DNA of 4,409 nt from a virus (lineage: Duplodnaviria; Heunggongvirae; Uroviricota; Caudoviricetes): IMG/VR virus record IMGVR_UViG_2529292717_000009; one strand, given 5' to 3'. The notes beneath the pieces are model-generated. The model did no database searches. It worked only from the letters and a program-made list of their open reading frames with translations, and had not been told where the DNA came from. Numbering within the stretch: position 1 is the first letter of the stretch; each line of letters begins with the position of its first letter. Positions 1 through 4,409 of this stretch are shown piece by piece. Both the position numbers and the translations under genes were made by a program.

Positions 1-350
1 CCTGCGATGCCCTGCAGATGGCGCTGTGGCGGCGTAAGAGGCCCCGGAACGTTATCGTTCACACGGACCGTGGAGGCCAGTACTGTTCAGCAGATTATCA
101 GGCGCAACTGAAGCGGCATAATCTGCGTGGAAGTATGAGCGCAAAAGGTTGCTGCTACGATAATGCCTGCGTGGAAAGCTTCTTTCATTCGCTGAAAGTG
201 GAATGTATCCATGGAGAACACTTTATCAGCCGGGAAATAATGCGGGCAACGGTGTTTAATTATATCGAATGTGATTACAATCGGTGGCGGCGGCACAGTT
301 GGTGTGGCGGCCTCAGTCCGGAACAATTTGAAAACCAGAACCTCGCTTAG
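1..350 (+). CDS. insF: IS3 transposase OrfB (InsF-type, DDE integrase core), C-terminal fragment; 5' end beyond the window edge
   Basis: The frame is open from nt 3 ([29 protein letters not shown]...), so the annotated ATG at 18 is internal. It contains the second catalytic Asp context (HTDRGGQY) and the catalytic Glu context ([14 protein letters not shown]) typical of IS3-family DDE transposases. Stop TAG at 348-350. Confidence 0.9.
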
Positions 351-380
351 GCCTGTGTCCATATTACGTGGGTAGGATCA
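342..380. repeat. IS3 right terminal inverted repeat (IRR), about 39 bp, overlapping the 3' end of orfB
   Basis: Terminal sequence ...GGCCTGTGTCCATATTACGTGGGTAGGATCA ends at 380 with CA. It matches the remembered IS3 IR when reverse-complemented. The exact inner limit of the IR is approximate. Confidence 0.7.
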
Positions 381-467
381 TGGAAAAGGCAAGTGTTATT
401 GCAAAACTGCAATCTCTCGGCTTTGTAATTGCTGGTTATGAAGAACTTGCGATCCCTACGACTTAAC

Positions 468-472
468 AAGGA
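468..472 (+). promoter_or_regulatory. Shine-Dalgarno (AAGGA) for the 343-aa ORF
   Basis: AAGGA at 468-472, 8 nt upstream of ATG 481. The in-frame upstream stop TGA at 439-441 prevents any longer N-terminal extension. Confidence 0.6.
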
Positions 473-480
473 AAATAATA

Positions 481-1512
481 ATGAATGATTTATCAACATA
501 TTTTGGCGTTAATACTGCGGTAGTAACTCCATTTGCTTATGAGAATGCACTTAATACCCTGATTACTAATCTCGATCTGTTCGATGTGCAATATCATACA
601 GAAAACAGCATTCTTCTTACCGACCTGATTGATCAGTTTGTGCAGGTAGCTGGGGAAACCTCGCCTTACGCTCAAAGCGACTGGAACGCCTCTAAACGTC
701 AGGAATGGTCAAACAAACTTTTCCAGATGAAACACGTCGGCAGTATTAACGCTGTTACTTCTCGTGACCTGGAACAATACAGCCGCCAATATCCAAACCG
801 TTCTGATGCTATGCTGGTAGCGGTTAATGATTTCTCTGAGGCTCATTACCGTTCACACGCAAACCGTGTTGAAGTGGATCTGATTACCGCGCTGCTGGGC
901 CTGAAAGTTGAATCTGAATATGCCGGACAAGGTGATCTCGACTTCCTCGACGGTCAGGCTAAAACCACGGTACCCGCTATCGACTTTGCATCGACTACTG
1001 TTAACCCGTTCCTTGCTATTCGTAAAGCGGTGCGCTTACAGAGTGAAAAGCTGGGGTCTGGTCTTGCTGCAAAGCGAACTGGTGTAATTATCTTTGCTGC
1101 TGGCACTGCTGCTGATGGTTTGTCATCTAACCCGCTGATCAGTGACATGGTGAAATATGCAGGCGATGCGAGTGCTACGGCCCTGTTTACCCGTATGGTT
1201 GATTCTAACCCAGCCTATGACTCTTTCCAGATTGGTGGGATCACTGTTATTGATGTGTCAATGTTTCCTGAGATTGTTGCTCACATCGGAGAGAACGGTT
1301 TCGCAATTGTTCCGGTAATGGATAAAGCGGCACAGTGTTACCAGCTTCACACAGGCGTTGGTGTGCGTCATGCTGAGTTAGGTCAAGATGCCGTGTTACA
1401 TCACCAATATCTAATCAAGGATGAATTCCAATTCCCATCTGTGGTTACTGAGACATCTTATCTGCCAGTAAACAACATTCCGCAAGCTATCATCTTCGGA
1501 TCTGCTGCGTAA
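481..1512 (+). CDS. hypothetical protein, 343 aa; function unknown (soluble, Ala/Thr/Val/Asp-rich; no Walker A or other catalytic motif seen)
   Basis: Long uninterrupted ORF with ATG start and good SD; stop TAA at 1510-1512 followed by a second TAA. No membrane-spanning segment is evident. Size and composition are compatible with a structural protein (capsid-like), but this is conjecture. Confidence 0.8.
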   Translation: MNDLSTYFGVNTAVVTPFAYENALNTLITNLDLFDVQYHTENSILLTDLIDQFVQVAGETSPYAQSDWNASKRQEWSNKLFQMKHVGSINAVTSRDLEQYSRQYPNRSDAMLVAVNDFSEAHYRSHANRVEVDLITALLGLKVESEYAGQGDLDFLDGQAKTTVPAIDFASTTVNPFLAIRKAVRLQSEKLGSGLAAKRTGVIIFAAGTAADGLSSNPLISDMVKYAGDASATALFTRMVDSNPAYDSFQIGGITVIDVSMFPEIVAHIGENGFAIVPVMDKAAQCYQLHTGVGVRHAELGQDAVLHHQYLIKDEFQFPSVVTETSYLPVNNIPQAIIFGSAA

Positions 1513-1653
1513 TAAAGCATTAATAGACGATTCCCCATAGGGGCAATAAGGGTAAGGGATAATCATATAAGCAAAATATGCGCTGTCTCTTGCCCTTTTT
1601 GTTTTTCTACTGTCTACAAACCCAAATAAAAATATATATGTGAGAGAAAACCA

Positions 1654-1851
1654 ATGAATACAGAAAACCCACAATCCTTTATTCTTAAGGCTGTAAAAGA
1701 ACTGGCAGCTATTAGCGAGGAATCAGTTATAAACACATCGGCGCTTTGCCGCCTTTTAGAAATTGATGCAAATAATGTGCGCCAGCGTGTCTTTCAGACT
1801 GGGTGCAGCACTTTCGAAGCAATTCAATACTATTGCTCTAAAAAACAATAA
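1654..1851 (+). CDS. small hypothetical protein, 65 aa; possible helix-turn-helix DNA-binding protein
   Basis: ATG at 1654 preceded by a weak SD (GAGAG at 1642-1646). The segment TSALCRLLEIDANNVRQRV has the hydrophobic/polar pattern of an HTH recognition unit. The short length keeps confidence moderate. Confidence 0.5.
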   Translation: MNTENPQSFILKAVKELAAISEESVINTSALCRLLEIDANNVRQRVFQTGCSTFEAIQYYCSKKQ

Positions 1852-1870
1852 TAAACAACAATCATAATAC

Positions 1871-1875
1871 AGGGA
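1871..1875 (+). promoter_or_regulatory. Shine-Dalgarno (AGGGA) for the 614-aa ORF
   Basis: AGGGA at 1871-1875, 10 nt upstream of ATG 1886. Only 34 nt separate it from the upstream 65-aa ORF, suggesting co-transcription. Confidence 0.55.
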
Positions 1876-1885
1876 AACAATTAGC

Positions 1886-3730
1886 ATGTTAGAACTTAAC
1901 GTCAGCCGCTTATCAAACGTTGTCACCTTCCAGGTTGATCGACCATCATTAGAGAAAGCAAAAGCAGAAGTAGAAAAACTTCGTAAACAAATGGCGGCTG
2001 TGAAAGATATAGAATTGCGTATTAAGACACATAAACAATCAACCGCTAAAGCAAAAAAAGACGTAGACGATATTGCTAAAAAGCAAGCACAGGCTGATAA
2101 AGCTAATGCTAAAGCACAATTAGCCGCTCAACGTGTAGTTGCAAGAGAACAAAAAGCCCTGGCAGCACGCAAAGAGAAGGCAGAATTAAAGCTTTTAGAC
2201 GTTGGATCAAGCATTAGTGCAATGCACCGTCTTTCTGTAGCGGAACAATATAAAGCTATTGCACAGGCTAGAGAAATTGCCCTCCAATATGAAAGAGGCG
2301 CTATTAGTCTGGCACGTATGAATAGCCAAATGAAACGCCTACAACAGCAACAACGTAAGATTAATGGCAATCGTAACGCTCACGCTAAAGCCTATGCACC
2401 TGTTAAGGGTAGCGGGAGTATTGGCGGCGGTGCTGCGGCTGTTATGCTGGGTGGCTTAGGCGCTGGCGCTACGTATATGGCTATGAGTAAAGCCTCTGAA
2501 TTTGTTACTAACAGCTTTGCGAATGCTGAAACAGAAGGAGAATTAATCCAACGTGCAAGGCTTGGTGGAGTTGATTACAACTTACTTAATAATCTTGAGC
2601 GTTGGGCATATGACAACGGGATCGATAGCCTCCAGGGTGATCAGGGACGCAGAAAAATACTAGATGCCATCGGTAAAGATGTAAAGGAACGCGCTACCAA
2701 AAGCTATGACGAGGCTGAATATGTAGTTGATAAGAAAACTGGTAAAGGAGAATGGAAGGGCGGCGATAGCGGCATCAATACTTTAATGAATGAAGGATTC
2801 TTAACTAAAAAGGATCTAAAAGACTTTGCTGATAATCCGGCTGGTCTGGTTAGTAAAGCAGTTCAGGGAATGGTAGCTAAAGGCTATTCAGATGCACAAA
2901 TCGGTAGTCGTCTGGAAGATCTGGCTGATGATTTGATGCTCACCTCTAAATACTGGACACGCTCCGCTAAAGAAGTGGAACAATCAGCACGAGAACAACG
3001 AGAATCAGGGCGCTGGGTAACACAGGCACAACAGGAAAGCGTTATTAAATTCCGTGAACTGAATAATGCACTTAGTGGGCTTTCTGACTCACAAGGGATC
3101 GCCTTTGTTGATGGCTTTATGAAATCTCTTGATCCGAAAGTGATTGAAGAGTTTAAAAAGAGCATGGTTGCAATGCTGCCAATGTTTACCAAATTAGGCG
3201 AGGCTGTAGGCGGTCTACTTAATGCGATCATGAAAACTATCAACTGGTTGATGAAAAACGACGAGAAGACGGCAGCTATTCAGAAGAATTTAGGGGATGC
3301 ACCGCCACTATCTAACGAAGGAATGAAGCAGAATCTTTCTAATCTCACTCCTGATCAATATAAAGGCGCTGGCACCGGAACAATTAAGCCAGATAACAGC
3401 AATTCCCTGGTTAACACTATTAAAAGCTGGTTTATGCCAGAAGAAACGGTAGGTGGGGCGCAGGCTGTAAATCAATACAGTCTCGAAGGACAAAACATTG
3501 CAAATCTGAAACAGAGTGCAGCACAACAAGCTTTCAAGGCTCCTTCTTACACCTTTGCACCTGTTATTAACTTCAATCCAGAATTACAAGTAAATGCAGA
3601 AGTGCCGCTAACTATCGAATCAGACACCGGACGATTGAGCGAATTTATCGACTTCAAATCAAAGGCATCCTCCGCTGAGTTTAGCAAGCTATTAACGCTG
3701 GGTGTTATGTCAGGCGGGTCAACCTATTAA
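1886..3730 (+). CDS. hypothetical protein, 614 aa: N-terminal Lys/Ala/Gln-rich coiled-coil-like region, single Gly/Ala-rich hydrophobic segment, large C-terminal domain; function unknown
   Basis: Longest ORF in the window, with ATG start and SD. Residues about 20-165 are low-complexity and charged (AKAKKDVDDIAKKQAQADKANAKAQLAAQRVVAREQKALAARKEKAELK). Residues 175-200 (GSGSIGGGAAAVMLGGLGAGATYMAM, nt 2408-2485) are Gly/Ala-rich and hydrophobic, transmembrane-like. Stop TAA at 3728-3730. Confidence 0.85.
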   Translation: MLELNVSRLSNVVTFQVDRPSLEKAKAEVEKLRKQMAAVKDIELRIKTHKQSTAKAKKDVDDIAKKQAQADKANAKAQLAAQRVVAREQKALAARKEKAELKLLDVGSSISAMHRLSVAEQYKAIAQAREIALQYERGAISLARMNSQMKRLQQQQRKINGNRNAHAKAYAPVKGSGSIGGGAAAVMLGGLGAGATYMAMSKASEFVTNSFANAETEGELIQRARLGGVDYNLLNNLERWAYDNGIDSLQGDQGRRKILDAIGKDVKERATKSYDEAEYVVDKKTGKGEWKGGDSGINTLMNEGFLTKKDLKDFADNPAGLVSKAVQGMVAKGYSDAQIGSRLEDLADDLMLTSKYWTRSAKEVEQSAREQRESGRWVTQAQQESVIKFRELNNALSGLSDSQGIAFVDGFMKSLDPKVIEEFKKSMVAMLPMFTKLGEAVGGLLNAIMKTINWLMKNDEKTAAIQKNLGDAPPLSNEGMKQNLSNLTPDQYKGAGTGTIKPDNSNSLVNTIKSWFMPEETVGGAQAVNQYSLEGQNIANLKQSAAQQAFKAPSYTFAPVINFNPELQVNAEVPLTIESDTGRLSEFIDFKSKASSAEFSKLLTLGVMSGGSTY

Positions 3731-3763
3731 TCATCGCTGTGGGGCTGTTTAGCCCCCTTAAAT

Positions 3764-3768
3764 AAGGA
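3764..3768 (+). promoter_or_regulatory. Shine-Dalgarno (AAGGA) for the 87-aa ORF
   Basis: AAGGA at 3764-3768, 9 nt upstream of ATG 3778. Confidence 0.5.
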
Positions 3769-3777
3769 TTACAAATT

Positions 3778-4409
<632 letters not shown>

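Follow-up and report, generated by a model that had tools for sequence, protein, structure and literature searches.

In bacteriophage lambda, gene D precedes gene E. The D product, gpD, and its counterpart SHP of phage 21 are trimers that bind and stabilise the mature capsid and, like the decoration proteins of PhiTE, Sf14 and Bas63, comprise about 100-150 aa. Capsid genes of their own are also carried by the capsid-forming phage-inducible chromosomal islands (cfPICIs), small integrative elements with an integrase and a replication initiator accompanied by iteron-like repeats, which Alqurainy et al. in 2023 reportedly described as being without tape-measure or Dit-like tail genes. Interruption of operon genes by the 1,258-bp IS3, in turn, is represented by the insertion mutations and 'mobile promoter' cases of Charlier, Piette & Glansdorff (1982), in which a 3-bp target duplication is formed and the right end of the element, which carries outward-promoter motifs, faces the downstream genes.

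Here, we analysed a DNA stretch of 4,409 nt (the window) from a Caudoviricetes record, IMGVR_UViG_2529292717_000009, which corresponds to the entire 4,409-bp contig AQDF01000040.1 of draft assembly GCA_000354815.2. Coordinates are those of the window and features lie on its plus strand, unless stated otherwise. We propose that positions 381-466 are, very probably, the dead 3′ fragment of a 127-aa gpD/SHP-like gene that was split by a simple IS3 insertion. As in the classical cases, the same 1,258-bp IS3 interrupts an operon gene, is flanked by a 3-bp duplication and directs its right end at the genes downstream; in contrast to them, the insertion lies within a coding region of a phage-like island rather than upstream of a silent gene, and any downstream activation would be a prediction from motifs. 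The split-gene product resembles the described decoration proteins in size, is likened to the trimeric gpD and SHP by its predicted fold and, as in lambda, is encoded directly upstream of a gpE-type capsid gene. The host island shares with cfPICIs its small size, integrative nature, integrase, replication initiator with iteron-like repeats and own capsid genes, but is without portal, protease, terminase and connector genes and carries tape-measure and Dit-like tail genes; any mobilisation by a helper phage would be hypothetical.

The frame at the IS3 boundary derives from the end of an annotated gene

The window opens with the right-hand 380 bp of IS3 (1-380). This part holds the C-terminal portion of the orfB transposase, with its stop codon TAG at 348-350, and, in roughly the last 40 bp, the right inverted repeat ending ...GGATCA; Pfam rve domains match this first gene of the contig. 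The repeat reads ...CGTGGGTAGGATCA at 367-380, with base 380 as the final base of the element. A first-pass annotation had pointed out a short frame reading out of this terminus, and its coordinates were all correct: starting from an ATG at 380-382, the frame encodes the peptide MEKASVIAKLQSLGFVIAGYEELAIPTT in 28 codons, stops at TAA 464-466 and is followed, after a gap of 14 nt, by a 343-aa gene at 481. In the program-made list of open reading frames (ORFs), the frame is extended in the 5′ direction to a GTG at 368 within the IS3 repeat, resulting in 32 aa.

Taken as a bare ORF, a frame of 28-32 codons is no more than chance would give and unremarkable, since the 4.4-kb window contains 53 ORFs of 20 aa or longer. 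That the frame is real follows from its homology to an annotated gene in IS-free loci. In E. coli EC13 (locus L002), where no IS is present, the 127-aa CDS WP_000013184.1 stops 14 nt upstream of the 343-aa gene and ends in precisely the 28 residues of the reported peptide, so the full-length gene that the first-pass annotation had anticipated does exist. At the nucleotide level, the final 86 nt of the 127-aa CDS annotated in the IS-free loci recur without change at 381-466. Megablast with positions 381-4045 located the region in 468 of 5,426 complete E. coli genomes, 141 of which matched over at least 80% of the length, and a 501-bp query spanning the insertion point was recovered uninterrupted, at 99% identity or more, from 230 of the 5,426, with O104:H4 strains among the carriers. 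The abundance of chance ORFs of 20-35 codons would be in keeping with a fortuitous frame in intergenic DNA, beside an IS3 that had landed between genes, but the DNA matches the end of an annotated gene base for base, is conserved as protein and, in those 230 genomes, belongs to a gene that is continuous through the insertion point. Refuted by these genomes, by the IS-free 127-aa gene and by the exact protein obtained upon rejoining the flanks (see below), a chance origin retains practically no probability.

The frame at 380-466 consists of a hybrid ATG, codons 101-127 and the stop codon of the split, putative head-decoration gene, with gene-derived DNA at 381-466. It appears to start at the IS3 end because the terminal A of IS3 (base 380) and the TG of the target duplication rebuild the codon for Met100. 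An ATG is thus present where the first-pass annotation had let the frame begin, but it is a hybrid codon at an internal methionine of the 127-aa protein and not the native start; judged from the sequence, the apparent start codon is a coincidence. The 14-nt spacer that follows (467-480) is native and identical in IS-free loci, and includes the Shine-Dalgarno-like AGGA (469-472) of the 343-aa gene, placed 8 nt upstream of its ATG exactly as in those loci.

A complete IS3 inserted at codon 100/101

Window positions 1-4027 are 100% identical to the complete genome of ETEC-2264 (locus L001), where the IS3 is present in full (L001 6743-8000, 1,258 bp), is co-directional with the operon and contains a CDS labelled 'IS3-like element IS3 family transposase, programmed frameshift' (orfA/orfB). 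The window includes only the last 380 bp of IS3, which are 100% identical to the ETEC-2264 element. Both termini fit the IS3 family, which starts with 5′-TGATC... and finishes with ...GATCA-3′; the left end, TGATCTTACCCAGC..., was found in ETEC-2264 and on contig AQDF01000009.1.

Comparing both junctions with the intact-gene sequence identified the target duplication as TGG, 3 bp long as expected for IS3. On the left, ...AACAGCATGG adjoins TGATCTTACCC and, on the right, GGATCA adjoins TGGAAAAGG, while the uninterrupted gene reads AACAGCATGGAAAAGG at the insertion point. TGG flanks both IS3 ends, its right-hand copy occupying 381-383 (no strand assigned), and occurs as a single copy in IS-free loci. 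After in silico removal of IS3 and one TGG from ETEC-2264, the remaining sequence differed from the IS-free locus by three mismatches in 1,200 bp. A simple insertion of a complete 1,258-bp IS3 at codon 100/101 has split the 127-aa gene. The earlier suggestion that IS3 had entered a pre-existing upstream gene of the same operon is borne out by the IS-free 127-aa gene and the TGG on both sides, and the duplication expected at the other IS3 end was found both in ETEC-2264 and in the assembly from which the window derives.

In that assembly, the contig of the window is bounded by collapsed IS copies, as is usual for short-read contigs, and the left flank of IS3 lies elsewhere. The 31-kb contig AQDF01000009.1 ends with a 65-aa gene, codons 1-100, TGG and the IS3 left end including orfA, and is 100% identical to ETEC-2264 over the last 3,137 bp compared. 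This identity to a complete genome suggests that AQDF01000009.1 and AQDF01000040.1 are adjacent. Joining the AQDF01000009.1 flank to window positions 384-466 restored the exact 127-aa protein; nothing was therefore deleted, and the 5′ genes were moved by one IS3 length. It had been claimed that the insertion displaced the native promoter and the 5′ genes, which is accurate insofar as they now lie 1,258 bp further upstream; being separated by a simple insertion, however, they were not lost. A deletion or rearrangement next to IS3, with loss of the 5′ part of the gene and of the upstream genes from this genome, might be considered given that the window begins inside IS3 and leaves the left side out of view, and that adjacent deletions by IS elements are known (PMC8860574). 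The 31-kb contig of the same assembly nevertheless retains codons 1-100, TGG and the left end of IS3 and, over the 3,137 bp compared, matches ETEC-2264, a genome with a simple insertion, at 100%, which renders such a loss extremely improbable.

In the sequence of events that we propose, a complete 1,258-bp IS3 would have transposed into codon 100/101 in the orientation of the operon, duplicating the target TGG. On its 5′ side would thereby lie codons 1-100 together with the upstream genes and the region of the native promoter, and on its 3′ side the last 27 codons, followed by the capsid, 65-aa, tape-measure and Dit genes. The remaining fragment would comprise codons 101-127 and the stop codon, preceded by two bases of codon 100. 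This event would have inactivated the decoration gene and turned its 5′ part into a 112-aa fusion into the IS3 left repeat, while the capsid gene presumably kept its own ribosome-binding site.

The IS3 junction was detected in 3 of the 5,426 complete E. coli genomes, namely ETEC-2264, the O114:H49 strain 90-9280 and LR882978, and can be used to recognise the lineage of a small clade related to ETEC. The 5′ fragment, consisting of 100 native codons and 12 codons from the IS3 left repeat, is present as a 112-aa fusion protein on 21 contigs. RefSeq lists this fusion (L001 6442-6780, WP_001388814.1) as a 'hypothetical protein' rather than a pseudogene, and leaves the 3′ remnant without annotation. 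The split gene is an ordinary IS-made pseudogene, a textbook gene disruption, and the main use of the finding is an annotation fix for the 5′ fusion and the 3′ remnant.

Transcription across the IS3 end and fate of the remnant

The transposase genes of IS3 point toward the capsid gene, and two motifs near the right end of the element are exact matches to published outward promoters. The first, TTTAAT-15 nt-TACAAT (255-281), is the motif that PMC12095673 gives for '3R(+)', the right end of IS3. The second, TTGGTG ... CAATTT (299-329), corresponds to the outward promoter of the IS3 right end from Charlier et al. (1982), as cited in PMC12095673 and given the name P3R in PMC8860574. According to PMC12095673, the right-end promoters of IS3 have low activity and are repressed to some extent by the last 50 bp, a segment that lowered expression by a factor of about 1.9, perhaps by acting as a pause or Rho site. 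A consensus promoter scan returned no sigma-70-like site on the plus strand between 242 and 1919, and a combined promoter and terminator scan gave counts no higher than those of shuffled controls; neither a signal at the IS3 junction nor an intrinsic terminator emerged. As the first-pass annotation had suggested, it is plausible from these motifs that the downstream genes are expressed by read-through or from an outward promoter of IS3. In our proposal, transcription of the capsid gene would now originate from the upstream or the transposase promoter, with read-through across IS3, or from the weak outward promoters of the IS3 right end.

The same motifs make transcription of the frame itself plausible, and could indicate that the insertion created a new small gene, with the hybrid ATG or GTG 368 yielding a peptide of 28-32 aa that has a role of its own, for example in translational coupling to the capsid gene. 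In line with this idea, the in-frame ATG is immediately preceded by an AGGA and the stop codon lies 14 nt before the capsid start. However, just 2 nt separate this AGGA from the ATG, too short a distance for normal initiation, and the capsid gene has its own AGGA as in IS-free loci. Neither the 28-aa nor the 32-aa version is a called protein among approximately 15 billion sequences. Moreover, in an AlphaFold2 model residues 100-127 contribute just a helix and a strand to a one-domain fold, and the junction is limited to one narrow lineage, comprising the three complete genomes and near-identical draft contigs. We consider a new small gene very unlikely and reject it, along with the adjacent deletion discussed above, on the evidence listed against each. 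The 28-codon remnant most likely has no functional product, since it makes up a fifth or so of a single-domain fold and the AGGA before it is just 2 nt from the ATG.

The split gene is predicted to encode a head-decoration protein

Close relatives of the 127-aa protein, with 70-99% identity, are found in E. coli. A profile search of 1.84 billion representatives extended the family to 24 related clusters, several of which consist of 115-125-aa proteins that align through the C-terminus and share the motif ...LGFxF...A[LI][PR]TT. The C-terminal segment, which includes the part cut off by IS3, is kept in relatives as distant as about 30-40% identity. A Klebsiella counterpart, 41% identical over the full length, occupies the same place upstream of the capsid gene.

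Including distant relatives, AlphaFold2 produced a model of the 127-aa protein with a pLDDT of 81 and a pTM of 0.70; it replaced a first model built from close relatives alone, which was unusable (pLDDT 48). When this model was compared with the PDB by Foldseek, decoration proteins ranked first, namely those of PhiTE (E = 7e-6), Sf14 (E = 3.8e-5) and Bas63 (E = 4.9e-5), followed by P21 SHP (E = 2.6e-3) and lambda gpD (E = 0.15). TM-scores were moderate, at 0.5-0.68, and in the structural alignments these decoration proteins share only 8-23% sequence identity with the 127-aa protein. Among the predicted viral structures in BFVD, the top Foldseek matches were likewise annotated as head decoration proteins, with a best E value of 3e-8.

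Sequence profiles pointed weakly in the same direction, without reaching curated confidence for the family as a whole: of 19 members, one matched phrog_2680 at 1.7e-5 and one matched PF02924 (HDPD) at E = 0.0094, while the PDB decorating protein 9zbi_G matched the decoration profile at a sub-threshold 0.14. The 127-aa protein itself had no Pfam match, no sequence library reached its curated threshold for a decoration family, and tblastn against 50,697 phage records returned no homologue. As no sequence match reaches a curated threshold, the assignment rests on predicted fold and gene order. The order decoration-capsid is common to E. coli, Klebsiella and one metagenome contig and, with a gpE-type capsid gene next to a gpD-like gene, the pair mirrors lambda D-E. 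Predicted fold and gene order suggest that the split gene encodes a head-decoration protein resembling lambda gpD and P21 SHP. A 'hypothetical' family that hundreds of E. coli genomes carry, O104:H4 strains among them, now becomes readable as a probable gpD-like decoration protein with a gpE-type capsid protein as its partner. The interest of the finding, which is modest, lies in the identity of this gene and in the island that carries it.

Downstream genes and a second insertion sequence

The gene following the remnant (481-1512) is intact and probably encodes a 343-aa major capsid protein of the lambda gpE type, as indicated by its homologues and by phrog_29. Homologues with 42-49% identity (E values from 1e-73 to 1e-91) belong to PF03864 and are named major capsid protein E; the match to the phrog_29 major head protein is weak (E = 5.8e-5). 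The protein had no direct match in Pfam, and sequence comparison with the PDB gave sub-threshold matches only. Next comes a 65-aa gene (1654-1851), which in Klebsiella relatives has a 62-aa counterpart between the capsid and tape-measure genes. It is followed by a tape-measure-like gene of 614 aa (1886-3730), matching phrog_16051, tail length tape measure, at E = 2.4e-29; its Klebsiella homologue matches the same family at E = 3.3e-101.

The last gene of the series, a Dit-like tail or baseplate gene (3778-4041), is truncated. Its 87-aa ORF has about 83 native codons and an IS-derived end, whereas the full-length 225-aa protein matches PF21821 (Dit_like) at 1.6e-27. Identity to ETEC-2264 ends at window position 4027, and the remainder of the window (4026-4409, minus strand) is the end of an IS100kyp element of the IS21 family, with the terminus TGTCAATGACGG..., the 3′ part of istB at 4092-4409 and a match to PF01695 (IstB_IS21). 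The element was identified by alignment to copies in two other genomes, and its junction is ambiguous by 2 bp (4026-4028). The junction was absent from all 5,426 complete E. coli genomes, including the three with the IS3 junction, and present on 14 near-identical draft contigs of 4.3-4.4 kb. As it is missing from all complete genomes and thus also from the three IS3 carriers, the IS100kyp insertion probably came after that of IS3. In the proposed sequence of events, IS100kyp would later have entered the Dit-like gene; with a second gene of the same operon interrupted, this copy of the island would appear to be decaying.

An independent IS100kyp was observed in E. coli IPCEC31 (L008 2644-3100), at another site of a 'phage baseplate protein' pseudogene beside a tape-measure gene. 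The L008 locus looks like a related island; IS100kyp may hit the Dit-like gene repeatedly, or decay may be frequent among such islands.

A satellite-like island in Enterobacteriaceae

The operon belongs to an island of about 12 kb, counted in 468 of the 5,426 E. coli genomes, which spans approximately 1260-13363 in L002 and 2700-14400 in L003 and of which the window covers 381-4025. In E. coli, the island starts with a resolvase, an ORF-poor stretch with an iteron-like array and two small ORFs. These are followed by an O-like replication initiator (phrog_270, 1.1e-8), two more small ORFs and an AT-rich, ORF-poor stretch of about 1 kb. The island ends with a 65-aa gene, the decoration and capsid genes, a second 65-aa gene, the tape-measure-like and Dit-like genes and an integrase of the tyrosine type (PF00589). 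A Klebsiella island has the same layout without Dit and is bordered on both sides by ordinary chromosomal genes; its proteins are about 41-47% identical to those of the E. coli island and the architecture is conserved. Named homologues of the capsid protein extend to Citrobacter, Cronobacter, Enterobacter and Pluralibacter.

Within the first ORF-poor stretch, a 1.8-kb region upstream of the O-like replication initiator (L002 2913-4692), the iteron-like array at 3429-3571 consists of five to six copies of ACCC(C/T)(C/A)ACAGAAnnCTGTTA; every copy contains an internal palindrome, and the array is probably the origin of the island. The second stretch, upstream of the head genes (L002 6503-7500), starts with two overlapping, near-consensus promoter-like sites with TATAAT -10 boxes and finishes, immediately ahead of the 65-aa gene, with a GC-rich, hairpin-like element and a T run (about 7423-7475). 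This stretch might represent a long leader or an antitermination-controlled late operon. An Rfam search of the IS-free island returned only the flanking tRNA-Leu, with no match for the ORF-poor stretches, and PADLOC detected no defence system among the island proteins, only a weak HTH match.

Neither the E. coli nor the Klebsiella island has, within its roughly 12 kb, genes or ORFs for a portal, protease, terminase or head-tail connector. Megablast of window positions 381-4045 against the phage collection gave no match and tblastn of the capsid protein against 50,697 phage records found no homologue; with both the nucleotide and the protein searches empty, no helper or parent phage can be named. 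A literature search retrieved no described satellite with this gene set. Speculatively, and going by gene content, the host island may be an uncharacterised satellite-like element. We raise, as a tentative and rather doubtful possibility, that it belongs to an undescribed family of integrative, self-replicating islands of about 12 kb in Enterobacteriaceae with a partial virion set, either a new kind of satellite or an element interfering with assembly. If true, such islands would supply their own shell and tail-length components and borrow the rest from a helper, and the IS3 and IS100kyp insertions would mark one decaying copy. The compact, cross-genus layout with its incomplete virion genes is suggestive of an uncharacterised element akin to phage satellites, and may be worth experimental study.

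The chromosomal surroundings of the island vary. In ETEC-2264, it adjoins paoD and a LysR pseudogene while, in EC13, it adjoins tRNA-Leu/ahr, and the integrases differ; the different chromosomal sites, taken with the different integrases, indicate that the island is mobile.
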